DNA of 64,000 bases from Nemertoderma westbladi (Eukaryota > Animalia > Xenacoelomorpha). The position numbers were made by a program, and so were the translations under genes. The notes beneath the pieces are model-generated. The model made no database searches. It saw only the letters and a list, made by a program, of their open reading frames with translations, and was not told the origin of the DNA. The stretch lies in the NCBI GenBank assembly GCA_032718475.1, contig JAUCBJ010003629.1, positions 1 to 64,000 on the forward strand, in the 5' to 3' direction. Positions 5,128 to 60,147 of this stretch are shown piece by piece (positions within the stretch are counted from its first letter, which is position 1; the number at the start of each line of letters is the position of its first letter).

Positions 5128-5138
5128 ATATCTGTTAT
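5128..5138 (-). promoter_or_regulatory. Non-tRNA primer-binding site of A (ATAACAGATAT), complementary to LTR motif 5880-5890
   Basis: Directly abuts the LTR end ...GCGCAAACA and has no TGG start. It is the exact 11-nt reverse complement of the minus-strand LTR motif ATATCTGTTAT. Confidence 0.7.
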
Positions 5139-6334
5139 TGTTTGCGCTTTTGAAGACCTTTGACAGTTTAACCTGCCAAAATTAGAATGTCTTTTAGATG
5201 ATATATATTCTTTAGCTTTATGACGAGTATTTGATACACTACATTAGCCGAAGCCAGTCTATGCGCAATCATTCACCCGTTGGATATACCCGGGAGACTG
5301 AGTTCGGAGCTTAATGATTGATGGTGTAAGCCTACTGTATTATTCGACTGATCGTAATATATAATCTCTGACAAATATTATTCACTTTCGGGAAATATTA
5401 ACAGTTCCTTTAGGACGTGGCGCTCTAAATATGTAAACAGAGTTATGACTTAAACTAGTCACAACGAAAAGGCTATAGATTAACGTATATGGCGCATTCT
5501 TTAGGAGATGCTTTGTTATCAGTTACAATCATACACAATGCTGCACAATACTGCACACTAATCTGCCGACCTTCACTAAATTTAGTCACGTATAAAGAGA
5601 GCAACAGACAATTTATGTTGGGCATATGAAATAGCATTAGATTCACTTCAAACCACTCAACATAGGTCGCAATCGTTTATCTGTAACCGGTCTCTCTAAC
5701 CTTTAGTATATCAAGAAGGTGGGGTGTCTGACTATTGATCAGTATTCCGATATAATAATTCATCAACAAATATAACGAATAACCAACAGCAAAGCAGTAA
5801 TGCAAGATATGAATTGCATAGATATGTATGATAAGTAAGTAGGGTTTGATTTTGTATGATTAGTTAAGTAAGTAGCTCGATAACAGATATACGTTCTATA
5901 ATTAAGCCTACTAATGTAAAGCTAAAGAATGCTGATATACGGAGGTGCCAAAAGCCGGTGTTCTTAGGCTCTGGGCAAAAACATAACACTGAACTACTGA
6001 GTTCTGTATACACCTCCAACACAGAGACAAAAACGCTCTGATTGGTCAACCGAACAACTAGAGAACAAAGAAACAAAGAAACGTCGACGTGGCAATGTCA
6101 GCTGTTAACCGTCGTCATGGTAGCGACACTGTTTTCAAGAGTATCCAGCTTATCGCGTCACGAGATTGCGGATTATGTCCTCTAAAGTACAAATACAGTA
6201 CAAATACAGAAGAAATGACTTTTATGTCCTCTAAAACACCAGTACAGCAAGGACACGGCCCTTTTATGCCTGGCAAACCAACTACAGAGTACTTTAAGGG
6301 AAAATAACCGGTTAATGACGCAAAAGCTTTTACA
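5139..6334 (-). repeat. 5' LTR of element A (~1196 bp, TG...CA)
   Basis: Termini match the LTR termini of B (TGTAAAAGCTTTT ... AAAAGCGC[A/G]AACA) and internal blocks are homologous. Confidence 0.85.
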
Positions 6335-6700
6335 TACCCATTGAGGTAGCAATGGAAGGTATTAGCGAATGTTGGGCCCAAGGGACTACCCATTGAGGTA
6401 GCAATGGAAAGTATTAGCGAATGTTGGGCCCAAGGGACTACCCATTGAGGTAGCAATGGAAAGTATTAGCGAATGTTGGGCCCAAGGGACTACCCATTGA
6501 GGTAGCAATGGAAAGTATTAGCGAATGTTGGGCCCAAGGGACTACCCATTGAGGTAGCAATGGAAAGTATTAGCGAATGTTGGGCCCAAGGGACTACCCA
6601 TTGAGACACCGTGAATGTTGGGCCCAAGGGACTACCCATTGAGACACCGTGAATGTTGGGCCCAAGGGACTACCCATTGGGACACCATCAATTTGCATAA
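6335..6700 (-). repeat. 52-bp (x5) and 38-bp (x2) tandem repeat derived from a Penelope-like RT motif
   Basis: Unit tacccattgaggtagcaatggaaagtattagcgaatgttgggcccaagggac. The minus strand reads MQIDGVPMGSPLGPTF and SMGSPLGPTFANTFHCY. Confidence 0.85.
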
Positions 6701-25559: not shown

Positions 25560-25652
25560 CTACGACGTTAAATTATGAGACAGTAGGTCATGCGACGTTA
25601 AATTCTGAGACAGTAGGTCCTGCGACGTTAAATTCTGAGACAGTAGGTCCTG
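25560..25652 (+). repeat. 30-bp minisatellite, left part (split by element B)
   Basis: Unit cgacgttaaattctgagacagtaggtcctg; continues at 36899. Confidence 0.9.
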
Positions 25653-26835
25653 TGTAAAAGCTTTTGTGGGATAACTGATACGTTTGCCTTTGCTGGCCAG
25701 TTCCCCCCCAGTCGCTAGAATACTCTCAAAGGGATTTATAACTAAAATAGTGCAAGCTACCGGCTTATTGGCTGATGTGCTGTACGGAGATATCTGGGCT
25801 CAGTTTAATCGGCCAACTAGCCTAGAGAGGTTGCCTAAGCCTTGCTGTCCGTGTCGGCCAATAGAATTTGCGTAGGCGTTGATTTCGACCTATCCCAGCG
25901 CTACTGAACTGAATTTCCTATCTCTATGCTCATCCTCTGTGTTGAACGGGAGCTTCGTGGAATAAGGGAGTTGGTATCTTCGTATAGAGCAGTAGTCACA
26001 TGTTTCTGTTGTTGTGTTCCCATTTTTCGCCATAACACCGGCTTTTGGAACAACTCTAGCAAAAACTGCTTAGATTATAGAAAGTATAACTGTTACCGGC
26101 GGTGTTACCTCACTTAATTTAACTGCACTAATCATATTGTTTGTACTGCTATTTACCGTCAGTTATTAATTGTATCGATTTGTTGATGAAATATTGTCAT
26201 TTGGAGAATATTGATAAATCACCCAAATTTCCCAATTTCTTGATACACTACAGGTTAGAGAGACAGGCTATATATAACAATTGCGATTTATATCAATGTG
26301 GTGTGTATTGAATCTAATGTTATTTAGTAGACACTACCTGAGTCAATTGCTGTTCTCTTTATGTGTGATCAAATATACTGACGGTCGGCAGAATAGTGTG
26401 CATGATTGTGAGTGTGATGTGACTGGTAACAAAGCATTTCCTAAAGAATGCGACTTATACTTTAATCATAAGCCTTATCGTTGCGTTTAGTATAAGTCCT
26501 AGCTCTGTTTAAATAGATAGAGCGCCACGTCCTAAAGGAACTGTTAATATTTCCCGAAAGCCAATAATATCTGTCAGAAATTAATTAATAACGATCTATC
26601 GAATAATACAGTAAGTTTACACTGCAACCTTACGCTGCAATAATAAAATTTAAGCAGCCGAATTCAGCCTCCTGGGTGTAGATCCATCGGGTGAATGATC
26701 GCGCATGGGCTGACTTCGGGTAATGTTTTGTATATTAGCATAAAATATTGTCGTATGCTAAAGGTGTTTTAATTAACTAAAAGACATATAAATTTTGGCA
26801 GGTTAAACTGCTAAAGGTCTTCAAAAGCGCGAACA
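25653..26835 (+). repeat. 5' LTR of element B
   Basis: Near-identical to 35716-36898; I noticed two substitutions. AATAAA at ~26642. Confidence 0.95.
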
Positions 26836-26847
26836 GTAACAGTTATA
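26836..26847 (+). promoter_or_regulatory. Non-tRNA PBS of B (GTAACAGTTATA), complementary to LTR motif 26085-26096
   Basis: Abuts the LTR CA end. Exact 12-nt reverse complement of TATAACTGTTAC in the LTR. Confidence 0.72.
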
Positions 26848-28682
26848 ATCTTATTGCAGTAGGCAATAAGGTTGCAAGATACCGTAGGAACCGGTACTTC
26901 TGTAGGTCTGTAGGCCTAACTGTCCTAACCGGTACTGCTGTATAAGTACATTAGTATTATTCGATTTTGATTATTGTATACCGGTAGGTCTTAGTATTTA
27001 ATCAGGGAACGGCCGCCCTGATTTTTATTTGAGATTCTACTTATTTCTGTCGGTTTTATTTACTAGTAGGCTAATATTGAGCAGAAGGCGTGTGACCCTG
27101 CTCAGATTGTTCAGATAATTGTAGGCTGAGCTGCTGTCTGACTGTTGTTGAGTTTGGAGAGATTGCGGTGTGTGTAGAGTTGGTCTGATAAAGTGCCGTT
27201 AGTAAGTTGGGGCAGCCATATGCGGTAAGGTCAATCCCCTCTTAAAGAGTAAGTCGTACTACCGTGTTAGAACGCATACTAACTAACAGTTTCAGAATCT
27301 GCACATACTGTAGTTTGTTTAGGCTTGATAGTAGTCTGCCAGCGTTTAGTTTGTATTTTGTTTGAGTATTCTGTACGGGTAGCGTAATATTTATTATTCA
27401 GAGTTTATGCGATTATTCGCAACATTCATGTCCCCAAGTTTATTCCTACAGTAATTGTGCTTGTTATACATACCGTTATAGTTAAATTAACCTCGGTACT
27501 ACATCAGGGCTGCTCGGCGTAGGTAAAGACTGGAGATTTTGTGCTTCGGTCACTCCAGCAGATGCCGTGGTTCTTTTAACTGTTCAAGTATATTTAACTA
27601 CTGATTATTTGTTATACCGGTACTTGTACCTAATTTAGGGTTTAGTGTACAGTGCTTTCCGAAGTAATTAGTGTAGGCAGTATATTTGTGTTGTAAAGTG
27701 GTTGATAGGCACATTCGTTAGCTCTATTAGCTTCTGGGTAGGAACAATCCGTGATACATAACGTAGTACCTATAGCGATACGGTTATAGGTCGTCAGGCG
27801 GTGGTATTTTCCTATCTGGACAGTGCAATATATTTACTACTACTTATTATTTTAAATACCGTAGTATCCTGTCTGTTGTAATAACCAGAATTCTAACCCT
27901 TTGTTAGGCTGGTTTGTAGACTTCCTGTAAAATTACCCTAAAAATTCGTACGTAATATTTTGTTGTTGTGTTTAATTAGAGATTTAATCTCACTCGTATC
28001 GTAAGTAATTTGTAGATAAGTAACTTAGGCCAGTAGAATTATCTGTTTTAGTGTCTCAATAAGTAACACTTCACTGAGAGCGCACAGCTTCTGTGTAGTG
28101 ACTCCCCCAGAAATAATAACATTTATTTCAAATATTGACAAAAACCCATTTTAAACGGGTATATAAATATTATAAATCAACTCAAACGATTTATAAATAG
28201 TAGGCCTGCCATACAACAACTAGGTCTCAATATCAGTTGGACTACTGCTTAAATAACGGTAATAAAGTAAGTTAAAGTAACCAAGTAACCCTAAAATATT
28301 CAGAAATTCAATTATTCTAAAATAATTGACATACCAGTATTTACCATCGGCTTATTATATTTATTTCTATAAATTTGAGCTGAAATCATACCGGTACTCT
28401 GTAATTAATTCTAGTCCATAATTATACTTATATATACTATCAGTGTAAGCTGTATACCGGTATTCACGATAGGCCTATTATATATTTATATATATTTGTG
28501 CTAAAATTATATACCGGTACTCTGTGACAAACCTAGTTTACAATACTTATATATACTATAAGTGTATACCGGTATTCTAATATATTGTAATTAATTACCG
28601 GTACTAGGCTAACAGTGATACTGAATTACTAGACTTGCTTTGACTGTAAAATAGCAATAGGCATTCAACTGTACAATCAAAC

Positions 28683-31600
28683 ATGTCTGACACAAAACGG
28701 GCACTGTCAGATAGTTCGGATCCCCTTCTCATCCTTCCTGTAGCCGTACTCAAAAGGGTATTGATTGCGGTGGAGGAGCACCAGATGGATTGGGCGAAAA
28801 GTGAGCGATCGACCAAGGATAGTTATGCGGGATACACGAAGGAGGAACTGAAGTCTATTGTCGAGACGCAATGGAATTTCCCCGGACCCGGACTCCCGTT
28901 TAACTTATCGAAAGCTGGCTGGGAGGACTTATACAGGATGGGAGTGGTATGGAACACTAGGGATTCGGCTATGTGGAAGGGGTCGGTAGCAGAATATGCA
29001 CAGAGATTCTTCAGCTCTCTGCGGCGATTGGAGGAGCAGCTGTTTCAGCGGCCTTACGGACCTCGGGAGCAGGAAGAGCTGCTTTATCAAGTTCGCGAAC
29101 GAGTTCTGTGGATCAGACTAATTCTTTCAGCCTATGAGAAAGTCTCAAGGATAAGCCAAGATACGTCGTTGCGGGTCGCCGTAAAGACTTTGTTCTGGCG
29201 TGTGAGTCTTAAAGTCCAAGCAACGACTCAATGGAAAGCTCTGCTAACCGAGCACATGACCCAAGGAGAATCAACAGATGCCGTCTTTTCTCAAGTGGAA
29301 GGCGAAGCGACGGCAGAGAAACCTCAGAAGAAGGACGCAAGCGTTACGTCACCTGATGAAGGCGATACCACTGATCCTGAAGGCGGAGGAAATAGATCTC
29401 GTTCCAACAGACGGAGAAGAATGCCTCACCGTCAGAAATTGCCTAATCTGCCCCCAGCTGGGAGAAGGCAACTAGCTAGCACAGACTTAGGTAGTACAGA
29501 ACCCACAGACCAAATTATTGCAGTAGAAAGACTCCCTACTGTAGTAGATGAGCCTGAAATAATTAGGCCTGTTCTTGAAATCACCCCTTCGGTGATAGAG
29601 ACACCTGTACTCCCAGAAACTGCCTATAAATTCCCTTTGTACAGTACTAAACTACCTGTGCCCAGTAGGACTGTTCCCGAGTCCGAACCCGTCCTGGACG
29701 CCGAGCGAGAGATCAAGAATTTATCGCCCGTCGTCTCTCGCTCGCCCGCTACTACGTTGGCGACTCCCGCTTCGGCGGTTGAGTGGGTAGCTGAGGGACG
29801 ACGGGAGATGGGTCTCCTGCTCGAGCAGCTGAGGGAACACTGTTTGTGCTCCTCTCAGCAAGTCCGGGAAATGGAAGAGACTGTTCAGCAGCTCAAGGGA
29901 ACAGTAAGGGAAAGTAGGTTAGAGTTGCAAAAAGTGCAGCAAAGTATCGCACTAGAATGCGACAAATTAGTCAACCTACAAAAGGGAATACCAATAACCC
30001 CTGTAACAGTGTGTCAGCCTGTTAGGTCTGAAGTATTACATGCGCAAGGTGTGGAGCCTACACGCATCTATACTGCTAGTGAAGTAGAAACTCCTATAGC
30101 AAACCCTATTAAGGGTGATTATACGCCTGTTGTTAATGACATTCCCAATAGACCTGATAATAATCCGAGAAATTTATATACCGATAACTCGATATTCAAT
30201 AACACGATGGCCCAAGAAAGTTTTACGCGTCAAATGGCTAGAACCGAAGCCCGTCAAGCGGTAAAGGTTGGAGAGATAGTCAAGTTCAATGGAGATGAGA
30301 TGAAATGGTTACCTTTTAATGAATATTATAAAGATAACATACAGAACTCTGTGTTATCCAACGGAGAGAAACTTAGATTCCTCATCGAGTGCTTGGAAGG
30401 ACCTCCCAAGTCAATGGCGTTAAAATTTATTGGACATCCAGATGGATTAAGACAAGTTTGGGATACACTAAACATCAGGTATGGTAATAGGAATAACATA
30501 GCTAGGTATTTATATGCGAAATTAATGGCCCCCCGAAAGTTTCTTAGCAGCGGGATTATAGAGTTTTCCGATGAGATTCAGGAGATCTGTAGACAACTAG
30601 ATTGGTTAGGTAAGTCTCATGAATACCAGAATTCTATGGTTGTAGGAGCCTTAGCATCTACTTTGCCCAAGGGTGGAGTAGGTACACGCTGGGACAAGAA
30701 GGTGTTATATACGATGGAACAACAACAACGAGACCCTACCATGGCTGATCTCATGTCATTCTTGGATGGCGAAGTGAAATTACAACTCCTAAAGCAATCC
30801 AGAGAGAAAACACCGGAAAATATGGTAAGTGAGAAACCCGTTTCTAGGAGAAGAGTAACACCGGTGTGTTATACTGATGACGGTGAAAGCCAAGCTTCTC
30901 AAGAAGAAGACAGCGGGAAAGACACCGAGAAATTTTACTATGTTAACAAGACCTCAAAGGACGTAAGTAAATCTAAAGCTCGAACCCATGACAGGAGAGA
31001 ACAGGTTGCTAAGACTCCTCTTCAGTTTCCTAACAGAGTACACGGAAGAAAGCCCGAAGAAAGAACAAGAGTGCATAACGTCACCCAAAATAAGGTGAGT
31101 AACATTAAACCCAACTGTGCGCTGTGCGACGGGCCCCACCGTTTGAGTGCGTGTGCGGAATTCCTAAAGAAATCCCTTGTAGACAGACGTACAGTTGTGT
31201 GGGACAAGCGGTTATGCTATAATTGCCTCAGACGCGGACACCAGCGGCGAACCTGTTACTCCGACATAAAGTGTGCAAAGTGCGGTGCGAAACATCACAT
31301 CTTGTTACAAAGTGAATTCGAACGAAACAGCCCGAGTCAGGTAAGTGAGCCCAAATCACATGTCCAATTCAGTGATGTGAACGACACTGACCAAAGTTCT
31401 GAGTGGGAAGGATTCTATACGGACGAATTCTCCGACGCCAACGAATCCTGTTACCTAATAAATACCGCAGTGTATCGAGCACTTACTTACGAAAAGGACA
31501 CCGACAATGAGTTCTCCCCAACTAACTTTGACAGACAACCATCCTGGAAACCTTCAACTTCCAACGTAGGAATCAGAGAATTTCCTGTAGTGCAGGTAAG

Positions 31601-32549
31601 AGTTCAGGGTCCTAACAAAAGTTACATAGTGAATGCCCTCCTTGACTCCGGCAGTACAGGAACATTCATCGATCAAGAACTAGCCGAAGACATCTTTGCT
31701 GGACAACCCAAATTCCGAACTAAGTTAAATATGTCAGGAGTTATACAGGTTTGGAAATCTACCATAACGGCAGATTACTATGTAGGTGCGTTGTCCACCC
31801 CACAGGATAAATTAGGAGAACAAAGTATAAGGTCAGTAAAAATGGTAGCTATAAAGAACTTCGCTAATACCCAAGTAGAGCCTTATAACTGGAACGAGGA
31901 CAAGAGCATCCAACAACTTAAAATACCTCGATTCCAGACGGATTATCCTGGAGTGCAAATACTTATCGGCCAAAACGCGCACGAGGCGCTCGAGACATTG
32001 GAAAAACGACCTGCTCAACCGCAGCCACTACAAACCTATGCGGTAAGAACTAGAGTAGGTTGGTACTTTACTGGCCCTTCCCGCAGAACTCTCGAAGAGA
32101 GACTACCACCAGAAAGAATATGCCAGATAAATGGTTGGGAAGTGGAGAGCAGTGAAGTGGACGAACTAACTGAGGGAACACCATACTCCTCAGATAATGA
32201 CGATATTAACTCCAATGAAGATCAATGGAGACATCGCCCCGAGATGATTAATCTAGCCGACATCGCTTCCAGAGGAGCGACTCCTCAAGAACGGATAGAT
32301 ACTCCCGGCTGGTTAGGTGGACCCGACTCCCTAAGTAAAGAAGAAGATGAATGGCCTCCCCACCTTAACCCGGCTGAGATTAGACAGGCCAAGGGAGCGG
32401 AGAAAGTAACACGACAACCCAATCACCCAGCTGGTCGTTTATGTTTACTGGAAAGAGACCAAAAACTGTCCGGAAACTATGGAAGGCAAGATACTCTTCC
32501 TACGACCACTTCCCTAATCCGACAAATATCTAGGGACTCCATAACATAA
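28683..32549 (+). CDS. gag: Gag-protease polyprotein with fused RNase H and integrase C-terminal remnants; RT and IN core deleted
   Basis: Pao Gag segment; three zinc knuckles (CALCDGPHRLSAC, CYNCLRRGHQRRTC, CAKCGAKHH); protease ALLDSGS; then WRHRPEMINLADIASRG..WLGGP..EWP (RNase H tail) and HPAGRLCLLE (IN tail). No YxDD motif. Confidence 0.88.
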   Translation: MSDTKRALSDSSDPLLILPVAVLKRVLIAVEEHQMDWAKSERSTKDSYAGYTKEELKSIVETQWNFPGPGLPFNLSKAGWEDLYRMGVVWNTRDSAMWKGSVAEYAQRFFSSLRRLEEQLFQRPYGPREQEELLYQVRERVLWIRLILSAYEKVSRISQDTSLRVAVKTLFWRVSLKVQATTQWKALLTEHMTQGESTDAVFSQVEGEATAEKPQKKDASVTSPDEGDTTDPEGGGNRSRSNRRRRMPHRQKLPNLPPAGRRQLASTDLGSTEPTDQIIAVERLPTVVDEPEIIRPVLEITPSVIETPVLPETAYKFPLYSTKLPVPSRTVPESEPVLDAEREIKNLSPVVSRSPATTLATPASAVEWVAEGRREMGLLLEQLREHCLCSSQQVREMEETVQQLKGTVRESRLELQKVQQSIALECDKLVNLQKGIPITPVTVCQPVRSEVLHAQGVEPTRIYTASEVETPIANPIKGDYTPVVNDIPNRPDNNPRNLYTDNSIFNNTMAQESFTRQMARTEARQAVKVGEIVKFNGDEMKWLPFNEYYKDNIQNSVLSNGEKLRFLIECLEGPPKSMALKFIGHPDGLRQVWDTLNIRYGNRNNIARYLYAKLMAPRKFLSSGIIEFSDEIQEICRQLDWLGKSHEYQNSMVVGALASTLPKGGVGTRWDKKVLYTMEQQQRDPTMADLMSFLDGEVKLQLLKQSREKTPENMVSEKPVSRRRVTPVCYTDDGESQASQEEDSGKDTEKFYYVNKTSKDVSKSKARTHDRREQVAKTPLQFPNRVHGRKPEERTRVHNVTQNKVSNIKPNCALCDGPHRLSACAEFLKKSLVDRRTVVWDKRLCYNCLRRGHQRRTCYSDIKCAKCGAKHHILLQSEFERNSPSQVSEPKSHVQFSDVNDTDQSSEWEGFYTDEFSDANESCYLINTAVYRALTYEKDTDNEFSPTNFDRQPSWKPSTSNVGIREFPVVQVRVQGPNKSYIVNALLDSGSTGTFIDQELAEDIFAGQPKFRTKLNMSGVIQVWKSTITADYYVGALSTPQDKLGEQSIRSVKMVAIKNFANTQVEPYNWNEDKSIQQLKIPRFQTDYPGVQILIGQNAHEALETLEKRPAQPQPLQTYAVRTRVGWYFTGPSRRTLEERLPPERICQINGWEVESSEVDELTEGTPYSSDNDDINSNEDQWRHRPEMINLADIASRGATPQERIDTPGWLGGPDSLSKEEDEWPPHLNPAEIRQAKGAEKVTRQPNHPAGRLCLLERDQKLSGNYGRQDTLPTTTSLIRQISRDSIT

Positions 32550-34188
32550 TAACATATGGAGTGGGTGTGTGACTATATCATTTTATATTTGTTTTTTATT
32601 TTATATTTATGTATGTATTATTACGTAATTTTATTATAATCGTTTTCTTTAATTTTATTTAGTAGAATGTTATTTTAGCGATTATTTAGTAAATTAGTGC
32701 AATATATTAGTGTTTATTACGTACTTAATTACTTATAATATATTTAGTGCGACGGCAAGAAATAATTATTTTTCTCTTTCCTTACTGTCTGTATTATATT
32801 ATAAATGCGAGACTATAGTAAGATGACATGTCAGTACTTATTAAAGTAAAAAAAAAAAAAAAAAAAAAAGCCACTACTATATTTAAGTATTATTGGTAGG
32901 CAGAGTATTAGGAATGCAAAGTTCAGATCCTCGAGTCTCGGCTAAACCAAGCTCTGGGTAGACCTTGGAAACGACTTGCCTCTTCACACTGACATTGCTT
33001 CGTGCGATATTGCTCTTCTACCTTATAACAAATAATACATATAGTAGCGTGATGTCCCTCTAACAGTAGCGTAAAACGCAAATAAAGCTGTTAAACCTTT
33101 TGACCATCTGTAATTCTAGTCGATTAAGATATCGTGGCACCCACCGATATACTTGAAAGACAAATTCTAGAATCAGTGGTTAACGTCCCCAGACAAGTTC
33201 TGGAATAAATCGGTGCCCATCCAAAAATATTAATTTAATATTTATTAAAATCTGTAAAATTCCGATCCTTTAAAATTTCTAGTCAATTAAGATATCGCAG
33301 CACTTACCGATACTCTTAAAAGGACGATTTTATAGAATTAAGGATCCTAAGTCCCCAGATATGCTCTGGAATAAAATTTGTGCCAATTTAACATCAAATA
33401 ATAAAATTCGAGGGAATAAATTTAAATTCATATTCAAATGAATTTCATAAATTGTCATTTTGTGCAATTTGTAACATTCCCAAAATTTCAGTAATTAATA
33501 GATCATGGGAGCGGAGATTCATATTGAGTGTATTAGAGTGCGAGAATCTCCAACATATAGTCAATAGCCGATAAAATTTATAAAATCATGCATAAAGAGG
33601 ATATTGACAATTAAAGAATTACTATTAAATAGCATCCCAGATCTGTATGCATGAGAATTACCCTAATTCTACCGCTAGTTTTCCATAATGTCACCATGGC
33701 AACACCCACGCTAGAATTAGAAACAAGTTAAAGGAACAATAAAAAGCTTGCCCCATTGCGTAGCATAAGAGTATACATAGCGCACTGTTAGTATCCAAGG
33801 ATACATAGTAATAACGTGACATTCTGGAAGACACTGACTAACGGACAAATGGCATGCATGTGTGCAGTAAGTAATGATTGTATGGAATTTGTGCGTTTAT
33901 AGGTGAATGTTACTACTAAAGTGTGTTTACAGTAGCTAATCGCAATTGTAAAATAGCCCTAACTCTACCGAGATAACCTCAAGTGGATTCAAGCCTTTGG
34001 GACGGACAGTGGTGGGACTTGTGCCGGTTATCGTTGTCGTGCTGTTGCTACATGTTGGCGTAAACACTGCGACAACGGTACATCGGCGCTGAGAAACCCA
34101 CTGTCCGGGGGCAAAGCCTAGTAGGCAGCGACGCCCGCTTGCCTGAAATATTAACTCATATTGATATTAATAAACTCAGATAGCAGAT

Positions 34189-35637
34189 ATGACGGAATTG
34201 ATAGAAGATGACCTTGGTATTAGAGAGCGATATACTCTACCTTTACAAGCGTTTGTGGATAGTTTGATACGCGGTGAAGCCGATCCGACTATTACGGAGG
34301 ACGATGGTCGTTATATCGAACCGCCGATGTCCCAGGAACAACTTACGCGTGAATTGGACTATAGAAAATTCACCACTCGCTATACGAATCGTAATGGTAC
34401 GAATATGGACTTCTTAACTACCGGCCATCCTATCGATTTACATGATACGGACGATGTATACACCGAAAGGGAAATGGTTCTATTTAAATATCATACCCAG
34501 CGGAGTCGTAACGATAAACCGAGAATAGATCACGAAAATTATATTCGTAACAGACTGGGAAGACGAACCAATATGCCTAGAATCTGAGGAGATTCAGCCT
34601 ATCGCGCCCGGAACAGCGACAACGATTACATCCTAGAGTGGTATCAAGGTCCACAGTGTCTCACTGCGTACGATTATCGCCATGCCAACTATGTTTCTCG
34701 GCAACGTTGTCGGTTATGCGCATCGAGAGACCATGTTACGCCCATGGACACAAACGTCCGCTGTTCCTACTTCCACGAACAACTGACGATGGAAATTTAT
34801 TGCGCGTATTACAGACTCAATAACTTGCACATTTTTGCGGTTTGCCCTCAATTTATGACTCGATGCCATCATTGTCAATTAAAAGGACACGCCAGCTTTG
34901 ATTGTCCCTTTAACCATGATTTAGAGAGCGTAGATGAAATGATTGTACTACGTTATATCAGAGCTTGGGAAGCGAACGCTGATTTACATTGTGATTCACG
35001 CCATCGCTATTATCCTGGACGCGCTTACGAAGGAGTTTATGCGTTCCATCCTTATTTGTTTGCCTCCGTCGAGCAGAAATCGCGCCTATCAAGTTATGAA
35101 CTATTGAAGCGCGTTGGAGAATGTATTTCAACCAAATATGTACGCAAATTCCTCAGGAGCATTAATCCGAGTGACATCAATTCGTATAACTTAATAAACT
35201 TTATCCGTCAAGATCCGGCCTATGGAGACTTATTTGTCAACTCACACCCCGAGTTACAGGAAGTATATCGACGGCCTTACGAGTACAGAGCCCGCGAACG
35301 TGAGTTGGAAAGAACCATTAAACCAAGGAAGTTTCTAACTGCCTATGGTCCACCCACGGCCCTCGTTCAGACCACTCGTAAAGGACCCGTAAGAGCGGCT
35401 GTCTTGAAACGAGCTCTCAAAGCCGTTAGACCCCTCTCCCCGGACGTTGATGTTAATCAACCCGGTACTTCGACCGGCGGATATACCGATCGCAATCCCA
35501 CACCTTCTGATGCAATCATATTGCACCCTTCACCCAGGAGTTATAGCCCTCCTCGTAAAGTGGCTCGCCCCAAAGAGAAAAGGACTCTTGCTAGCTTTAA
35601 AAAACTGCGTAAACGCCGTCCGCGCAAGAAAGACTAA
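34189..35637 (+). pseudogene. Third ORF of B: zinc-knuckle protein homologous to the C-terminal part of ORF3 of element C; one in-frame TGA
   Basis: ORFs 34189-34587 and 34744-35637 share a frame and are separated only by TGA at 34585-34587. The joined reading gives RCRLCASRDH, HIFAVCPQFMTRCHHCQLKGHASFDC, AWEANADLH and a basic C-terminus. Confidence 0.75.
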
Positions 35638-35715
35638 CTGTTTAGAGTATTTTTATATTTTAGAAACTGTGATTTTGTATATTTTATAGACTTAAATCCC
35701 ATTTTCTGGGAGCGG

Positions 35716-36898
35716 TGTAAAAGCTTTTGTGGGATAACTGATACGTTTGCCTTTGCTGGCCAGTTCCCCCCCAGTCGCTAGAATACTCTCAAAGGGATTT
35801 ATAACTAAAATAGTGCAAGCTACCGGCTTATTGGCTGATGTGCTGTACGGAGATATCTGGGCTCAGTTTAATCGGCCAACTAGCCTAGAGAGGTTGCCTA
35901 AGCCTTGCTGTCCGTGTCGGCCAATAGAATTTGCGTAGGCGTTGATTTCGACCTATCCCAGCGCTACTGAACTGAATTTCCTATCTCTATGCTCATCCTC
36001 TGTGTTGAACGGGAGCTTCGTGGAATAAGGGAGTTGGTATCTTCGTATAGAGCAGTAGTCACATGTTTCTGTTGTTGTGTTCCCATTTTTCGCCATAACA
36101 CCGGCTTTTGGAACAACTCTAGCAAAAACTGCTTAGATTATAGAAAGTATAACTGTTACCGGCGGTGTTACCTCACTTAATTTAACTGCACTAATCATAT
36201 TGTTTGTACTGCTATTTACCGTCAGTTATTAATTGTATCGATTTGTTGATGAAATATTGTCATTTGGAGAATATTGATAAATCACCCAAATTTCCCAATT
36301 TCTTGATACACTACAGGTTAGAGAGACAGGCTATATATAACAATTGCGATTTATATCAATGTGGTGCGTATTGAATCTAATGTTATTTAGTAGACACTAC
36401 CTGAGTCAATTGCTGTTCTCTTTATGTGTGATCAAATATACTGACGGTCGGCAGAATAGTGTGCATGATTGTGAGTGTGATGTGACTGGTAACAAAGCAT
36501 TTCCTAAAGAATGCGACTTATACTTTAATCATAAGCCTTATCGTTGCGTTTAGTATAAGTCCTAGCTCTGTTTAAATAGATAGAGCGCCACGTCCTAAAG
36601 GAACTGTTAATATTTCCCGAAAGCCAATAATATCTGTCAGAAATTAATTAATAACGATCTATCGAATAATACAGTAAGTTTACACTGCAACCTTACGCTG
36701 CAATAATAAAATTTAAGCAGCCGAATTCAGCCTCCCGGGTGTAGATCCATCGGGTGAATGATCGCGCATGGGCTGACTTCGGGTAATGTTTTGTATATTA
36801 GCATAAAATATTGTCGTATGCTAAAGGTGTTTTAATTAACTAAAAGACATATAAATTTTGGCAGGTTAAACTGCTAAAGGTCTTCAAAAGCGCGAACA
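35716..36898 (+). repeat. 3' LTR of element B
   Basis: Direct repeat of 25653-26835. Confidence 0.95.
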
Positions 36899-37738
36899 TC
36901 CTGCGACGTTAAAGTCTGAGACAGTAGGTCCTGCGACGTTAAATTCTGAGACAGTAGATCCTGCGACGTTAAATTCCGCGACAGTAGGTCCTGTGACGTT
37001 AAATTCAGAGACAGTAGGTCCTGCGACGTTAAATTCTGCGACAGTAGGTCCTGCGACATTAAATGTTGAGACAGAAGGTCCTGCGACGTTAAATTCTGAG
37101 ACAGTAGGTCCTGTGACGTTAAATTCAGAGACAGTAGGTCCTGCGACGTTAAATTCTGCGACAGCAGGTCCTGCGACATTAAATGCTGAGACAGAAGGTC
37201 CTGCGACGTTAAATTCTGAGACAGTAGGTCCTGCGACGTTAAATTCTGAGACAGAAGGTCCTGCGACGTTAAATTCTAAGACAGTAGGTCCTGCGACGTT
37301 AAATTCAGAGACAGTAGGTCCTGCGACGTTAAATTCTGCGACAGCAGGTCCTGCGACATTAAATGTTGAGACAGAAGGTCCTGCGACGTTAAATTCTGAG
37401 ACAGTAGGTCCTGCGACGTTAAATTCTGCGTCAGCAGGTCCTGCAACATTAAATGCTGAGACAGAAGGTCCTGCGACGTTAAATTCTGAGACAGTAGGTC
37501 CTGCGACGTTAAATTCTGAGACAGTAGGTCCTGTGACGTTGAATTCTAAGACAGTAGGTCCTGTGACGTTAAATTCAGAGACAGTAGGTCCTGTGACGTT
37601 AAATTCTGAGACAGTAGGTCCTGCGACGTTAAATTCTAAGACAGTAGGTCCTGTGACGTTAAATTCAGAGACAGTAGGTCCTGTGACGTTAAATTCTGAG
37701 ACAGTAGGTCCTGCGACGTTAAATTCAGAGACAGTAGA
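36899..37738 (+). repeat. 30-bp minisatellite, right part (~28 copies)
   Basis: Same unit as 25560-25652. Confidence 0.95.
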
Positions 37739-38174: not shown

Positions 38175-40030
38175 TCCACTACAACTACTACTACTAGGAT
38201 CGGCATGCTGCATTGCAGCTGCATTTTTAAGAATGCTGTGCCGGCTTGTCGACAAAATTGCGCCGCTACAACTCGCTATCACCCGTGACATTTGCTAGAT
38301 CATCTGCATCTTCAAGGCCAGTGTCCTTTAAGATGCGTCTCAAGAAAGTCATGGGCTGTCCACCTTGCTTATTTAATCCATGAGGCAACCAAAGCACAAG
38401 ATTATGCACTGGCTGGTCCTCACGACGGAAGCAAGCTTGGGGGAACCAATGAGACACCTCCAATGTCATATAGTGTCTTGTTGGAGATGTGTGCATTGTA
38501 CTTGACACAATGAACCCGCCCTAGCATTCTTGTGTATGTGCCATCCAAAGATTTGGTGTCCTCAGCAGTTAGAGCCCAGCATCGACTCCCATAGAGGAGT
38601 ACTGGAAATACTGCTGCTCTAAATAATTGGACCCTAAGTTTCCGATTAATTCTCTGTGACTTACAAATCCTGGAAAGCCTATTCAAGCTGCCCATGCCTT
38701 TGCCTTATGTATTTGTAGGTACCTGTCTTCCGAATTCATGATCCCAGGTAACAGAAGTCGTCCACATGCTCTAGCAAACCATCCGGTGAGCTTATGCTCA
38801 TCTCGTAGAGACTTGGTGAGGACTTTCAGAGTTAACTGTCAAAATTTTGGTCTTTTTGGAGTTAATAAAAAGACCAACACTAGAAGCAGCCTGTTCTAAT
38901 GAGCTGAGGAGTCGTTGGGCTCCCTCTAGTGATTCTGAGAGTACTCGTAAGTCATCAGCAAAGTCTAGATCAGTTAGGTACTTGGCAGGATTTCCTCTCA
39001 GACTTCTGGAGCCAGTAGGTGGAGTTACCATCACCCCATTATCATTATGATGATCTAAGGAAATGCATAGAATATAGTCAACCACAATTATGAACAAGAA
39101 TGGCGCAAGTGTGTCTCCTTGGAGGACTCCCCATAATACTTCAAATGGTTCTGTGTCACCATCAACAGTAGACACAAATGTTGTCGAACCATCGTATACA
39201 TCTGATTGCTGCAATAATTTCATCAGGAATCTCATATAATGAAAGTATGCTGAACATACGTGAGCGAGAGACTGAAGCAAAGGCCTTGAAGAAGTCAACA
39301 AAGATAACAGCCAGATGCCTGTCTTTCTTATTTGATTACTCTTCAATTATAATCATCAGTGCCAAAATGGGCTCCATAGTTCCGCGACCTTTACGGAATC
39401 CATTCTGATTTCCACAGAGCAGTCTTTCAATTGGATCCCTGAGGCGATTTAATATAATTCTATTGTATAGCTTTGCAGCAATAGAGATCAATGAGATTCC
39501 CCGAAAAGAACCATATTGTTTTAGGTTGCCCTTCTTGGGAACTGGTACCAACTTATTTGTTTTCATTTCTTGTGGGACTCTTGTTATTCTGTACATGTCT
39601 AGTATGATGGGATTGATGGGCTTTAAACACGCAGGTATTTTAAAAACCTCAGGGGGAACACCATCTACTCCACTGGTACGATTGGTCTTAATGCTCTTTG
39701 CAGCAGCCTTCACTTCTGCAAAGGAGATATTGCAAATAAATGGGAATATCTGGGAGTACAGACTCAGATACTTTTACTTCTATAAAGTCATCAGGCAATA
39801 CCCTGTCATTATTGAAGAGCTTTTCAACCGTTGAGGCGATTGGCTGGTGATTCTGCCTTAACCTTGGTGGTTGGTTGGCTTTTCCGCCCAGTAAGGAAGT
39901 TGATCGATTTCCAAGCCTGGGATGATTGCCTGCTGACATCAGCATCATTGATGGCATCAACCTGCCAAGAAGCTCTGTTACTGTTAATGACGCTGTTAGT
40001 GAAGTTGGTGACTGCCTTGAAACCTCCATT
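38175..40030 (-). mobile_element. 5'-truncated degenerate RTE LINE (RT domain)
   Basis: SGVDGVPPEVFK, VPKKGNL, FRGISLISIAAKLYNRI, QNGFRKGRGT, GVLQGDTLAPFLF, DLDFADDL, LLYGSRCWALT. (TAG)n tail at 38175-38195. Confidence 0.9.
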
Positions 40031-43851: not shown

Positions 43852-46030
43852 TGATAAACAACCGCGACCTCTATACTAACAGCAGAACTGTTGAACAGAC
43901 CAATACCCGTTAATATCCTTCTGCCAACCTAATAAGTTCTCGTCTAACCAATAAGACACAAAGACTGCTCTACTGTTAAGTAAAGGGGCTCAGGAGCGTG
44001 ATATTACTAAATTGTAAGGGTTGCTAAATACAAACCGCTACTTACCGTTAGATGGCGCTAATCTGCCGTCCGCTAATATATTTTACTAAATTTACACAAC
44101 TCCTGCAAAATCGCTTGTTCCTTTCTCTACCGATTGCTCGATAGAGAGCTAACTGTTCGAATCTATGAGCCACGCAGGAATAACCAAAACAATAAACCCG
44201 AGTCGGCTCCCTAAGCTTACTTAAGACGAGTGCGAGAGGCCTTGCACTCAGAGTATTCTTACGCCTAATTCTATCACTATTAAAGCACGCTATTACCTAC
44301 GTCTTTCTAATCGCGAATACTGGAGGTTCCCTAACGTAATGTGTGAATGCGAGAATATTTAAAATATCAAAATGGTACAGTATCTGTTTCTACGTGGATA
44401 ATACCACTCCGAGTCTAAAACTGCCCGCGACTGGCTTTAGGCCAGCAAAATTACTAGCGTATCGTGCGTACCGAATAGTGCGTTCTAGCTGATTGCCCGC
44501 TAATGCAAATAACCGCTCAGCGTGAATAGTTTACAGTACACTAATTATTACCTTAGCTACTCTCCGCTATGCTGCGTACTAATTCTTAATTTTTTACTAA
44601 TTAATTACAGTCACAAATATTTAACAGCGTACTAATTACTAAGAGTTCCAGAATACGTAATTCTAATTTATCACGCAACAGGTTTCGCTAGTAATAGCCT
44701 AAATTGCCGTATTACTTTGACCTAATCAATAACTAATTATTGTAACTAAGAAATAGAAATCAATCAAAGGAAAAAGAGCGCCTATCTAAGCATTCGTAAT
44801 CTTAGGCACACTTCAATAACACACCAATCAGCGTTAGAAATCACAGTTTACAATTGTGCAATTCACTACTCGTACTCCACACTCAACGTTGCAACACGCG
44901 CAGGCCTCTCCCGGGTACATCTAGGATTCCTAACTAACCCAATTCCTGCCCCCCTAATACTAAATAGAGACAAAACCTGGATCATCAGCCCCCTAGATAC
45001 TGTACCGGCGATCGGTCTGCGTGCCGCAGTGTAAGATACCCGCCCGCAACGGTGACCCTGGCCAGCGTTGCCCGCTTTGAATCCTCCGCTCTCTCCTAGT
45101 CGCTCAACCCCCCGATGCGCCCACCGCCCACTGGCACCTTAGCCCTCCATGATGCTAATAGCTACCGTAGCGGCGCATGCAAATCACAAAGTCTGACAGT
45201 CTCAGGAATCCCTTGGGATTATTGCGCAGAAAAGAATCACATAGAACCATCAATCAAAGGTAGAAATCATAGTTCGATTGTAATTTGCAGTAATCGAAGG
45301 AATTATTGAGAAACACAAGCAAAGTAATCGTACTAGCAAATCATTCCAAGAAATTAATCAAAATTAGCAAATTGCAGAAAATACGATATCCTAATACAAA
45401 ATTAGAGACAGCTCAGCAAGTAAATTGTAACAGGGGTGTGTCATGTGATAAGGCATGAACATATGAACAACAAAAGGCCCTACCGGCACACCGCCAATTT
45501 ATAGATGATCCCGATGGGGTGATGCAATAAGGTGACTCAATCGCTCTCCCATTGGCTCTCCAGTCCATGCTAGCATTAAACCAACCTGGAAGCAGTTAAT
45601 CCAATAAGGAGACCGGATTGTAGCCCTATGCCCTCAAATTATTACCATATATGGTAATGGATCACGTCTCTGGCTGCTGAATGGCCAGGACAGCGTCCCT
45701 ATATGCTAGCCCTATCAAACTAATATCAGCAAGCACAAAATCCAGGGTCCGAGTAAACTCGCTACCCTGGAACTATCTACATATATCCTAATACAAAATT
45801 ACGTAGGTAGGGCTACATACTATACAAAATGAATGGATGCAAAATATATGGGCGTTTTAACTTCCTTACCTAAATGTCACCACACTGCGCCTTATCTAAA
45901 TAATTATACTGCACAACGGACTAATATTACGTACAGTATAACGGACTAATACTGCATACTGCATAATGGACTAATACTGCATACTGCATAATGGACTAAT
46001 ACTGTGGATACAGCGCCATATACCGTAACA
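43852..46030 (-). repeat. 3' LTR of element C
   Basis: Direct repeat of 60148-62326; I noticed about six substitutions. Confidence 0.95.
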
Positions 46031-47704: not shown

Positions 47705-50700
47705 TTATCGACCCGCTCCTGGGTTCTTTGGGCTCGCTCCTCTCTTTCGTCCCCTTCCCAGATACACTAATCTACCTCTAGTCGACTCCGTTGACGGCGT
47801 CCGTGAGGCGTCACTCCCCGGAACCGACGACGACGTTCCCTGAGCCCCGACAGATTCTCGGCTCGAACTTCTCCCTCGGCCTCGTCCCAATTGTCGCGCT
47901 CCTGTGGTCGCTTCCGCCAACTCTTCCTTCTGCAGTTGCACACGCGCTTTCTCAGACGCCCCCTGCGCCTTGCGCTGCAACCGTTGAGCTTCTATAATGG
48001 AGTGGTAGTGGTCGTCCTTGACTTGACGCTTGTCTTGGACCCCTCCTCCTGGTTCCTTCCGCGAGCCTTGAGCTCCAGCGGTCGTCGCTGTGGTCGCTGC
48101 GATCCTTTGTTCCTGTATCCTCTCGGCGGTCAATGAACCCACTGGCACATGAGTCAACAAGAATTCGTTGCGGTATTGTATAGCCGCCATCCTCCAATCA
48201 CCTCGCGCGCGTACCACTTTTCTAGTCTCCGTAAATACACCCTTCGTGATGCGATCGCAAATAGCAACGAAGTTCCATGTGTACTTATTGTCCATGTTCA
48301 ATTGTCTGAAGTATTCTCGGACTACGATAACTCCAGTGTTCTGTGGAAGGTCTTGAGCAGTTAGGATGAGCTCCTGATATTGTGGTAGCGATTGAAGATA
48401 TGGCTCGTACGCAACATGCGATGGGTCTACCGCCCAAAACCCATATCCCGCTTTAAATGGTAACCAACGCATCTGCGCTTGAATATGGTAATCCGCCACA
48501 CTCTCCCACTTATCTAACATCTCCCGAAGTAGGTTAGCGCTATGGTTTTGAAAGGAATCATCTCGCAGCTGACATCTCGCGCTACGATGTCCTTTTACTC
48601 CACAATATCCACATTGAGAAATGAAGACGGTGCACGTGTGAAACGAATGGTCGGTCTCATTGCACCAACGACAGACCTTATGCGCCGCCTCTATTACCGC
48701 GTCGCACGACTTTAGATTGTGCCTTGTGCTGCCGCACAATTTGCACCTACGCGCTTGTGGAAACCAGGCCCTCTCGTATATGAGGTCTCCAATCGGTTTC
48801 GCACTTCCTTCCTTCCCAATGTCTAATACGATGTCGTCCTCTCCGGTCAACGGTTGTCGATCCGGAACAAAGTAAACATCCTCGCCCTTGTCCTCTATCT
48901 CCAATATTTCCTCCCGCGTTCGTTTCGGATATGTCTTCTCCACCGGAAGATCTACTCCGAACACCTCTACTAACGTTTCCGGCCAGCCCTCCTTAACAGG
49001 TCTATCAGCCTCCGAGTGGAAGGGAGTACCAAACCCGCGGGTTTGATTCCCGAACCACTTCTCCAAAGCTTCTGGCGTCGGATATTCCATCGACGGTCGG
49101 TCTCCCAAATCTCCGATGTTCTGTCGATATACTCCTTCGAATATCGCTAATCCTCTCCTCACCATCGACGTATTCTCTAACGATTGGTTGAAGAACTGGG
49201 TTAAGAAACGCTTCATCATGTCGGATTGGATTCCCCCTTTCGAGCGAACGTATTGATCTCCTCCGAATACCAATGGATGACGCTTCAAAACTCGCGCAAC
49301 GATATCCGCTAATAAACAAGTCACCGTGTTCGACTCAAGCACCAAATAATATTGTAGCGACGCACGGGGTGGCGCGCAAATGTTCCAATACACTAACGCT
49401 TGCCGCTTGAAGTGGGATTTGAACTCCGCTCCCGGTGGCGTGTTGTATTCGCCATACGCCTCCTCATACTTCTTTTGCGTCTTTAACTTAAAGTCCCAAT
49501 TATACAACAAGTGTGCTATAAAGCCCATACCAGTCTTGGCAGAGTTGGGATACTCCCTATAAATTCCAATATCCTGTGCCCATAGCAACAATAGCTTGGT
49601 GTCGACAAACGGTCTCGGCAATCTATCTTCCAGATCAGTCATGGCGTTGAAGTCGCTCTCCAAATCGCTCTGGACTCCCGATCCCACCTTGACGTAATCT
49701 TGGTTGAGAATAGCCTCTCTAACTTTCTTTGGTAACATCCTGGCGTCGATACGCTCCGCTCCGTGCATACCTCCTCGCCTGCATACCTCCAAAATCTGTT
49801 CCCTAGGATCCTTCCCCTTCCGATATTGTGTCGTTATGATGGGCTCCGGTCTCTCTCGATCCGCCCTCACACGCATAAACACATGAGTCACACCATCGGC
49901 CGCACGAATTTGAATACACTTGCTGGTCAAACATTCCTGATGGGACCCTCCTTCATTGTCGTAGAACATCACTCTCCAATCTTGCAGTGATTCCTCCGTT
50001 TTCCTCCACTGACGCTGAATCTCATCTGATGGGGTCCACATGCGCTCGATCGCCTTGTGGTCATCATATCGGGTATAAGAACCCTTCCTCCTCAGCCACG
50101 TCTGGTCTACTTCCTCGTCATCTGGGAATGTAGCCACCGCGACCCATACCTTGATGTACTTATCCAACCATCCGAATAGTTTGCTCTCCTTCCCCGGAGC
50201 TCCAATCTTATCTAACGTGTCGTAATCTGTGATCTGCATTGGGACATCACGCAAGAACTTCGCGCATAAAACTTCCCGTAGACAGTCAACGTTCCAATGG
50301 TCCGCCATTCTTACCATCGGCAAGAATCGTATCGCTTCTCGCGACTCCGGATGATCTACTAATATCGCAGGTTCGGTGCCGTCGGAATAATACACCGGTC
50401 CGGGTTGAGATACGACCTGTGGAACAAATCCGGTCACTCTCCTCGTCTCCTCTTGATGTCTATCCGCGGTCTTATTATACTCCGCTATCCTGTTCTCAAA
50501 TAACTCTTTCGCCTTCGCCGCTCGCTCCTCCTGCCGCAACGCGTCTATGTCGTCCTGATGCTCAGGCGTGAGGCTTCTCACTCGGTGAGGTGAAGTAAAC
50601 GTAGTCCAGGGACTCGAGAGCTCCAAACCCGCGGGTTTGGTACCCGAGTCCCGCGCCGCTTCGCGCCGCGCCTCTAGATCCTTATAGGCTCGGTACAGCG

Positions 50701-51412
50701 AAATGGCCGCTGCCGTCTCTATCAAACTGGGTGTCGAACAGGGTTTAATCTCCGTATACGGATCTAATGTCGTAACGGTCGGCGTAATGGGTCTCGGAGG
50801 TCGCTTTCCGCTGAAGTCGATACTGATCATCGGGTTGCTCATCGGGTAACCTCCCTCGTTGTATCTAAGGAATTGGTGAGCTGGACATCGCGTTAATATC
50901 GGTTCCGGATGTTGCTCGTCTAATCGGTCGGGAATCGCCATGTCCTGTTTATTCATGCATTCACCACACTTGTAGAAGAGCTTGTATACGCTGAAGACTT
51001 TCGGCGTCTCCTGATCCTCGCCTCGAGTCCTCCGATACAGATGCATTCCGTCGAACTGGTCTCGGACTGCAGGTAGAGGCTCCTCGTGTCGTAAATACAT
51101 ATTCATATGGTATAGTCGTGCGATTTCCTCGTCCGGATCTGCGCTAATGTCACACACGTCCAAAGCGAAGTCGTAGGGATACCGCGTGCGATACTCTCTC
51201 CGCAAGACTTCCATCCGGTCCCCCAACGCTCTCATTCTTTCTCTCCGTAATTCTTTATCATAACTTGGTTTATACTTCCCGTTCAGCTCCATCACAGACC
51301 GCCCATGGTAGTAAACGTTAGAGTCTTTACATCCTGGTCGCGTGAATGGTAGCTCCGCCTCCTCTCTGGCAGTAAATCCTCTGCGCGGTTGCGCTCTAAT
51401 ATCCCTCTCCAT
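47705..51412 (-). CDS. ORF3: 1235-aa protein with a DEDDy (WRN/EXD/mut-7-like) 3'-5' exonuclease-like domain and three CCHC zinc knuckles
   Basis: ExoI-like VMFYDNEG, CIQIRAADG, LPKKVREAILNQDYVKVGSGVQSDL (ExoII-like), FVDTKLL, KTGMGFIAHLLY and ExoIII-like W....P....YYLVLE. Knuckles CKLCGSTRHNLKSC, CRWCNETDHSFHTC, CGYCGVKGHRSARC. Basic RG-rich tail. No signal peptide or TM segment apparent. Confidence 0.75.
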   Translation of the reverse strand: MERDIRAQPRRGFTAREEAELPFTRPGCKDSNVYYHGRSVMELNGKYKPSYDKELRRERMRALGDRMEVLRREYRTRYPYDFALDVCDISADPDEEIARLYHMNMYLRHEEPLPAVRDQFDGMHLYRRTRGEDQETPKVFSVYKLFYKCGECMNKQDMAIPDRLDEQHPEPILTRCPAHQFLRYNEGGYPMSNPMISIDFSGKRPPRPITPTVTTLDPYTEIKPCSTPSLIETAAAISLYRAYKDLEARREAARDSGTKPAGLELSSPWTTFTSPHRVRSLTPEHQDDIDALRQEERAAKAKELFENRIAEYNKTADRHQEETRRVTGFVPQVVSQPGPVYYSDGTEPAILVDHPESREAIRFLPMVRMADHWNVDCLREVLCAKFLRDVPMQITDYDTLDKIGAPGKESKLFGWLDKYIKVWVAVATFPDDEEVDQTWLRRKGSYTRYDDHKAIERMWTPSDEIQRQWRKTEESLQDWRVMFYDNEGGSHQECLTSKCIQIRAADGVTHVFMRVRADRERPEPIITTQYRKGKDPREQILEVCRRGGMHGAERIDARMLPKKVREAILNQDYVKVGSGVQSDLESDFNAMTDLEDRLPRPFVDTKLLLLWAQDIGIYREYPNSAKTGMGFIAHLLYNWDFKLKTQKKYEEAYGEYNTPPGAEFKSHFKRQALVYWNICAPPRASLQYYLVLESNTVTCLLADIVARVLKRHPLVFGGDQYVRSKGGIQSDMMKRFLTQFFNQSLENTSMVRRGLAIFEGVYRQNIGDLGDRPSMEYPTPEALEKWFGNQTRGFGTPFHSEADRPVKEGWPETLVEVFGVDLPVEKTYPKRTREEILEIEDKGEDVYFVPDRQPLTGEDDIVLDIGKEGSAKPIGDLIYERAWFPQARRCKLCGSTRHNLKSCDAVIEAAHKVCRWCNETDHSFHTCTVFISQCGYCGVKGHRSARCQLRDDSFQNHSANLLREMLDKWESVADYHIQAQMRWLPFKAGYGFWAVDPSHVAYEPYLQSLPQYQELILTAQDLPQNTGVIVVREYFRQLNMDNKYTWNFVAICDRITKGVFTETRKVVRARGDWRMAAIQYRNEFLLTHVPVGSLTAERIQEQRIAATTATTAGAQGSRKEPGGGVQDKRQVKDDHYHSIIEAQRLQRKAQGASEKARVQLQKEELAEATTGARQLGRGRGRSSSRESVGAQGTSSSVPGSDASRTPSTESTRGRLVYLGRGRKRGASPKNPGAGR

Positions 51413-52169
51413 TATGTTACGCGTATATACATATATATATATCCCAATAAGTGCCGTTACGTAACCAACTACACTGTGGGTAAATCAGTTAGATGTCGCC
51501 GAAAGACAGACCTCCCGAACCCCCCCGCCTTCCAGCAGTTCAGGTTCGACTCTCTAGATCCCGTCTCTTCCTAACTAACTATCCTCTAACCTATTCCCAT
51601 GCATAGCGCAAAAACTTTGGAGATAAACTGGCCGTGACCAACTCACTTTTTGATGCCCAAACTACTCCCATTACTCGTACTAAACTACAGTAGTTAGAAA
51701 GGACCATAGCCACAATACTCGACTATACCAAACCCACAGGTTTGATAATCGAACATCACACATCCTGCAAACTACTGAGTGGGGTCCGTGCACGCCTCTG
51801 GTGCTACTAACCTTTAGCACCTTAGTTGCACTGTTGGCACCAATCTGTGGAAGTTGCTAAACTCAATTTACACTCCTACGTAATATAGCCGTCACCATGG
51901 TTTCTAAATGCTATTTTCCAGGCTTCACGACTTTTCAAATTACTGTTTATCTATAGACGAATTCAAAAACGCGTCTATACACAGCGTCTGGAATTGTCTT
52001 GGGTTCACTTCTAATTTTTAAAATTTTAAATTTTCCAAAATTTTTGAAAATAAAATTTTGTTTTGATACCCACCAGACAAAACTCAACGCAAATCACCAC
52101 AACCCCGCTCCTATGCATTTCCTTGTATTTGCATACGAGGAATGCATACGAAGTGAGTTGCGTCCAACA

Positions 52170-56600: not shown

Positions 56601-56700
56601 TACCGAAATTCTGTGTCCCTTGAGGTCACCTACTCCGTGCATAGACTTCAACTCTATTTGGATCTCCTCGGCGTCCTGGAAGGACGCCGAGCTTGTCTCT
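53658..56700 (-). CDS. pol: Pol: protease C-terminal half, RT, RNase H
   Basis: YLPHHYV, KVRVVND, DIEAMFHQV, FGARDSP, FYMDDGL, RVLGLAW, LHLFSDAS, VPRAELQAA, YWTDAS, NPADITSRG. Confidence 0.93.
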
Positions 56701-60136: not shown

Positions 60137-60147
60137 GCGCGTATTAC
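60137..60147 (-). promoter_or_regulatory. Non-tRNA PBS of C (GTAATACGCGC), pairs with LTR motif 61187-61197
   Basis: Abuts the LTR end ...TTTATCA. The minus-strand LTR motif GCGCGUGUUGC pairs over 11 nt with two G.U wobbles. Confidence 0.55.

Follow-up and report, generated by a model that had tools for sequence, protein, structure and literature searches.

BEL/Pao retrotransposons of Nemertoderma westbladi with primer-binding sites complementary to their own long terminal repeats

Self-priming of reverse transcription was described for the Tf1 and Tf2 retrotransposons of Schizosaccharomyces pombe, as set out in the accessible parts of PMC7175516 and PMC5341516. The available text of PMC6317226 extends it to the Tf1/sushi group and, by a 10-bp criterion, predicts it for Tcn1 and for the TAR lineage (Houba and Osr-1) of the plant Ty1/copia elements, in which a complement of 10 bp or more starts 0–5 bp after the long terminal repeat (LTR). 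For the Belpaoviridae (Semotivirus), the International Committee on Taxonomy of Viruses (ICTV) gives an 18-nt primer-binding site (PBS) for tRNA-Arg or tRNA-Gly and priming by host tRNA, with LTRs of 0.2–1.2 kb and genomes of 4.2–10 kb (PMC8742986). Here we analysed a stretch of 64,000 nt of Nemertoderma westbladi DNA (contig JAUCBJ010003629.1, positions 1–64,000; hereafter the window), which contains three BEL/Pao elements, designated A, B, and C, amid satellites. At the position of a tRNA primer, each of them carries 11–12 bases complementary to its own LTR, and the sequences suggest that their own RNA is the likely primer of minus-strand DNA synthesis (probability of roughly 0.75).

In B, the 12 nt that follow the 5′ LTR (26836–26847) are the exact reverse complement of 26085–26096 within the LTR, and in A positions 5138–5128 are complementary to 5890–5880. 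Both pairings had been reported in the initial annotation of this DNA, and their coordinates and letters were confirmed. The two LTR motifs occupy homologous columns of the A/B LTR alignment and lie close to the 740 nt from the LTR 3′ end noted at that time (Table 1). The observations that pairing begins at the first base after the terminal CA of the LTR (offset 0) in both elements, and that neither site starts with TGG, also held. B and C have no TGG within 60 nt downstream of the LTR, and the first TGG of A is found at +18. The A/B alignment bore out the earlier claim that two differences between the sites are compensated on both sides, from G-C to A-U at PBS position 1 and from U-A to A-U at position 8, for which a rough hand estimate gives a chance of ~0.005. 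Position 12 is altered on one side only, and A therefore has 11 pairs. Dinucleotide shuffles produced such a match at offsets 0–3 in 3 of 5000 cases for B and 13 of 5000 for A; when scored by duplex energy, the values were 3/1000 and 43/1000, respectively. A and B do not count as independent cases. In the internal region of B, the LTR holds a 12-nt complement to only 3 of the ~8,850 positions, and matches of 9–10 nt are frequent in LTRs of such length.

The LTR of C is unrelated to that of A and B (the B and C LTRs do not align), yet it pairs in the same register. Its 11 base pairs, including two G-U pairs, again start at the first base after the CA, and the letters differ from those of A and B. 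The pairing energy is −19.4 kcal/mol compared with −11.9 kcal/mol at the next site, and 12 of 1000 shuffles scored as well. With 12, 11, and 11 pairs, all at offset 0, B, A, and C thus each have 10 nt or more that are complementary to the LTR and start 0–5 nt after it. The best partner of each LTR is its own PBS (−13.0, −10.5, and −16.5, against at best −11.3, −6.6, and −9.2). In the leader of C (60147–59890, minus strand), a unit consisting of the LTR end and the PBS occurs three times with drift, and copies 2 and 3 would still be able to pair with the motif via G-U.

Relatives were collected from metagenomes with an alignment of the reverse transcriptase (RT)–RNase H region of C and 40 of 120 listed homologues. 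We took the best 80 of 533 confirmed stretches, which are 33–43% identical; no relative was found among viral contigs. A long direct repeat was present in 28 of the 80 loci. Three of these (L037, L045, and L069) were dropped because their LTR ends could not be set, and the remaining 25 were scored, comprising 15 with both LTR ends and 10 scanned with no LTR end given. A self-complementary PBS was found in 22 of the 25 loci, which correspond to ~18 families by tree; many of the contigs share accession prefixes, and so the families are distinct, but the hosts are perhaps few. The match is contiguous in three loci, and in 19 it spans the exon-exon junction of a predicted intron in the LTR (spliced type). 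Among the 15 loci with both ends, ten show 10–15 bp across a GTAAG..YAG intron of 67–164 nt (0/200 shuffles each). L006 pairs across the junction only if the donor consensus is relaxed, which was done post hoc (2/1000 shuffles), and L030 and L039 have contiguous matches of 10 bp and 12 bp (11/300 and 2/300). L020 and L044, which have TGG sites, show neither a contiguous nor a spliced self-match. The ten loci without a known end include eight of the spliced type (10–15 bp) and L080 with a contiguous 13 bp (0/40 shuffles each), as well as the TGG-type L061 with no self-match. L060 has an additional 14-nt contiguous match at another position.

TGG sites and self-matches are thus mutually exclusive among the relatives, where L020, L044, and L061 are what we take to be TGG-type loci by motif rather than by a tRNA library. 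In each of the 25 self-type cases, made up of the three window elements and the 22 loci, 0–5 nt separate the LTR end from the start of the helix. In A, B, C, and most of the self-type loci, GT or AT is the usual first dinucleotide of the paired PBS segment. The predicted primer would accordingly end with AC or AT, or by wobble with GC in the case of C, which may reflect a preference in cleavage or extension. A junction-spanning match is present in RNA alone and never in DNA. From these matches and the G-U pairs of C, we infer that the pairing takes place in RNA. The self-priming proposed in the initial annotation gained independent support from a third element with an unrelated LTR, the same first base and G-U pairs, and from 22 of 25 relatives, the other three being of the tRNA type. 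In an unrooted tree with 80 rows, in which each locus is represented by its longest single alignment (quick search, no clade test), the contiguous, spliced, and tRNA types are scattered, and C forms a long branch whose place is unsure. A splice-built primer was also sought for A, B, and C and rejected, as the best candidates had 5–8 pairs and were matched by 80–172 of 200 shuffles.

In the proposed mechanism, the transcript would begin at the motif or before it, and nothing narrower is needed; a start exactly at the motif is perhaps too narrow an expectation. For C, an earlier start of transcription is suggested by two signals upstream of the motif, a TATA box at a distance of 602 nt and a splice acceptor at 59 nt. 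Pairing of the motif with the bases directly after the 5′ LTR would follow, possibly aided by a conserved helix between LTR and leader and by a stem-loop in U5. RNase H would then cut 3′ of the motif, in trans for B because B has no RT, and RT would extend the 3′ end of the motif into the terminal CA of the LTR, thereby copying U5 and R. For most relatives, splicing of the LTR intron would be required to form the motif, and A, B, and C would represent an intronless form. The U5 stem-loop appears in the minimum-energy folds of both A and B, which differ there by G-C/G-U swaps, and a 12-bp helix between U5 and the leader is predicted for C. A U5 stem-loop is reportedly required in self-priming of the Tf1 type. 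Upstream of their motifs, A and B also have longer pairings with bulges, which are not the same in the two elements and were left out of the count. Contigs of one run (X1), by guess RNA and by their nature unable to show transcript starts, covered 25653–27400 with diverged family copies and low depth at the motif. Among the rows listed, there was no canonical splice joint, and two contigs had a 1-nt insertion inside the B PBS at 26842.

A, B, and C resemble Tf1/Tf2, Tf1/sushi elements, and Tcn1, all of the Ty3/gypsy superfamily, in having an LTR segment of ~11 nt that can pair with a PBS just after the 5′ LTR and no tRNA site. They differ in being BEL/Pao rather than gypsy elements, in the loop of 739–1039 nt, and in that the motif is only predicted to be the RNA 5′ end; unlike the Tf1 groups, many of their relatives complete the motif only by splicing. 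The RT and integrase are not those of a Ty3/gypsy chromovirus, as the pol is of the BEL/Pao type, and the likeness to Tf1 is one of mechanism, not of membership in Tf1/sushi. The complements of A, B, and C also fit the rule used for the TAR lineage, C only with its G-U pairs; TAR belongs to another superfamily and kingdom and is likewise a prediction only. With the Belpaoviridae they share the Gag domain DUF1759, Peptidase_A17, DUF5641, the order protease-RT-RNase H-integrase, and an extra 3′ open reading frame (ORF) in the env position. Unlike the ICTV description, none of the three has an 18-nt PBS for tRNA-Arg or tRNA-Gly (no TGG at the PBS), the LTR of C reaches 2179 nt, and B and C are 11.2 kb and 18.5 kb long. 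As the family is defined by its proteins, the absence of a tRNA-type PBS marks a BEL/Pao variant. The initial annotation knew of no report of self-priming in BEL/Pao, and none was found in the searchable literature, screened mostly by title; subscription journals, Repbase Reports, and supplements could hold one. A term count on the accessible text of the BEL/Pao survey PMC3118150 gave zero occurrences of primer, PBS, tRNA, and self, and the accessible parts of PMC3601003, PMC8220671, and PMC5443660 contain no such description.

Several observations weigh against self-priming by these elements. In whole-RNA folds run from the motif to PBS+165, the motif-PBS helix of A and B does not exceed a probability of 0.02, and the motif of C pairs with the second PBS-like copy at +91 (probability 0.96). 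Predictions of long-range folds are not reliable, and the outcome could change with a nucleocapsid chaperone, but the folds lend no support to the helix. The motif is separated from the PBS by a long loop of 739–1039 nt, and in none of the three elements is there a consensus TATA 31 nt before the motif. A and B share a conserved TATAGAA that precedes the motif by 9–10 nt and could set a transcription start downstream of the motif. Taken alone, A is marginal by energy (43/1000 as above, and 19/300 in a second test). The window contains no intact autonomous element or partner. The relatives belong to the superfamily of C, and because C lies on a long, unsure branch, they are not proven to be its close kin.

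Four other explanations were considered. The helix might be structural, serving in packaging, dimerisation, or a translation switch, with another primer in use. The second LTR-leader helix, conserved between A and B with a fold probability of 0.98, indicates that the leaders hold long-range structure. However, the helix begins 0–5 nt after the LTR end in all 25 self-type cases and is missing in the three TGG loci, and no other primer site was seen in A, B, or C, making a purely structural role unlikely. A slightly less probable explanation is that self-priming uses the motif copy of the 3′ LTR or a second RNA, with transcription from the 5′ LTR starting downstream of the motif. This would agree with the conserved TATAGAA, with a TTAC ~31 nt further on in both A and B, and with the A-B identity per 100 nt of LTR, which is 0.36–0.60 up to position 500 and 0.66–0.84 beyond. 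On the other hand, TATAGAA misses the TATAWAW consensus and C has nothing similar beside its motif, whereas L073, the sole spliced relative with a TATA box 31 nt before the motif, fits a primer at the RNA 5′ end.

That the primer is a small RNA, such as a half-tRNA fragment from the host, and the LTR match incidental, appears very improbable. Half-tRNA primers are known in Ty1/copia lineages according to the available text of PMC6317226, but three different fragments would be needed here, each tracked by its own LTR, and the splice-junction matches in 19 loci could not be explained in this way. No tRNA gene was found in the window, and a 6-nt match to the anticodon loop of tRNA-Asn was set aside, being too short and not shared by C. 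Chance complementarity might be raised by the marginal energy of A and the commonness of short matches in LTRs this long. It is in practice refuted by the shuffle and relative tests, given the independent values of B (3/1000) and C (12/1000), the shared register, the compensatory changes, and the 22 of 25 relatives. Priming by the elements' own RNA from the 5′ LTR motif thus remains the preferred explanation.

The features of the three elements are listed in Table 1. B spans 25653–36898 (11.2 kb); its LTRs have two differences and are flanked by the target-site duplication (TSD) TCCTG at 25648–25652 and 36899–36903. The end of its gag-protease ORF includes a piece homologous to the RNase H region of C (BLASTP against C pol, E = 2e-11 and 7e-08); B has lost RT and integrase and keeps remnants homologous to C pol (~35% identity). 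The extra 3′ ORF of B had no match in the Pfam search, and an atlas search gave matches of at most 0.85 to zinc-knuckle clusters, a weak lead only. C spans 62326–43852 on the minus strand (18.5 kb). Its pol consists of two ORFs split by an in-frame stop at 53658–53660, before the integrase, and its best homologues have the same domains with ~40% identity; neither DUF1759 nor a capsid domain was matched in 52170–58726. The start of the A LTR was placed only by 14 nt in common with the B LTR start, and A leaves the window inside gag, so that its 3′ LTR and pol lie outside. DUF1759 in A and B and Peptidase_A17 with DUF5641 in C are the Gag and Pol domains of the BEL/Pao type, and B and C both have TG..CA LTRs, 5-bp TSDs, and a purine tract. 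B encodes Gag and protease without RT or integrase, and C encodes RT, RNase H, and integrase without a capsid-domain match. Both LTR pairs are young, and B and C thus seem to have been recently mobilised with help in trans. A adjoins a 52-nt satellite (6335–6605), B sits inside a 30-nt satellite (36899–37737), and much of the window consists of other arrays of 25–39 nt and a long trinucleotide run. Another RT fragment at 38798–39346 on the minus strand (RVT_1, E = 1e-10) is unrelated to C pol by BLASTP and is presumably of the non-LTR type, judging from its motif.

Table 1. Coordinates of features of elements A, B, and C in the window, and spliced-type relatives
Feature	Position or loci	Strand	Remarks
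B 5′ LTR	25653–26835	+	1183 nt, TG..CA; 99.8% identical to 35716–36898
B predicted self-primer motif	26085–26096	+	LTR 433–444, 739 nt before LTR end
B second helix, LTR arm	26598–26609	+	Pairs with leader 26954–26965, 12 Watson-Crick pairs
B predicted U5 stem-loop	26794–26815	+	20 nt before PBS; in minimum-energy fold
B PBS (predicted)	26836–26847	+	Offset 0 from LTR CA, no TGG
B second helix, leader arm	26954–26965	+	Pair probability 0.98 in fold; helix conserved in A
B gag-protease ORF	28650–32549	+	Pfam DUF1759, E = 1.7e-13; three Cys-His knuckles, LLDSG
B extra 3′ ORF	34588–35637	+	Cys-His knuckle-like motifs; homologous to C extra ORF (BLASTP E = 1e-12)
B 3′ LTR	35716–36898	+	Short purine tract ending GGAGCGG directly before
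A gag ORF	38–2962	−	DUF1759, E = 8.4e-11; 71–82% identical to B gag
A PBS (predicted)	5128–5138	−	Offset 0; 11-nt complement of 5890–5880
A 5′ LTR	5139–6334	−	~1196 nt; by alignment to B LTR
A second helix, LTR arm	5337–5350	−	Pairs with leader 5014–5001, 14 bp, one G-U
A predicted self-primer motif	5880–5890	−	LTR 445–455, 741 nt before LTR end
C 3′ LTR	43852–46030	−	Purine tract ending GGAGCGG directly before
C extra ORF	47705–51484	−	env position; Cys-His knuckle-like motifs; homologue of B extra ORF; no Pfam family
C pol	52170–56699	−	RT (YMDD), RNase H, integrase; Peptidase_A17, E = 1.9e-39; DUF5641, E = 1.8e-17; Integrase_H2C2
C second PBS-like copy in leader	60047–60057	−	+91 to +101
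C PBS (predicted)	60137–60147	−	Offset 0, no TGG
C 5′ LTR	60148–62326	−	2179 nt, TG..CA; 6 differences from 46030–43852; TSD CCCAG
C predicted self-primer motif	61187–61197	−	LTR 1130–1140, 1039 nt before LTR end
Spliced type, 19 loci	L006, L008, L009, L013, L018, L019, L022, L023, L025, L026, L033, L052, L054, L055, L060, L064, L068, L073, L077		PBS matches exon-exon junction of LTR GT-AG intron

Beyond the window, the chances appear evenly balanced that self-priming is the main start of reverse transcription in a broad BEL/Pao group, mostly with a primer built by the spliceosome from two LTR exons, and that A, B, and C are intronless offshoots with a loop of up to 1 kb. For annotation, the complement of a PBS should be sought in the LTR, either contiguous or across a splice junction. 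If self-priming by these elements is true, it would add a third LTR superfamily to those of Tf1/sushi and of the plant TAR cases, the latter predicted, and it would account for BEL/Pao elements without a recognisable PBS. Replication would then be tied to the choice of transcription start, as the accessible part of PMC5341516 indicates for Tf2, and in the relatives also to splicing.
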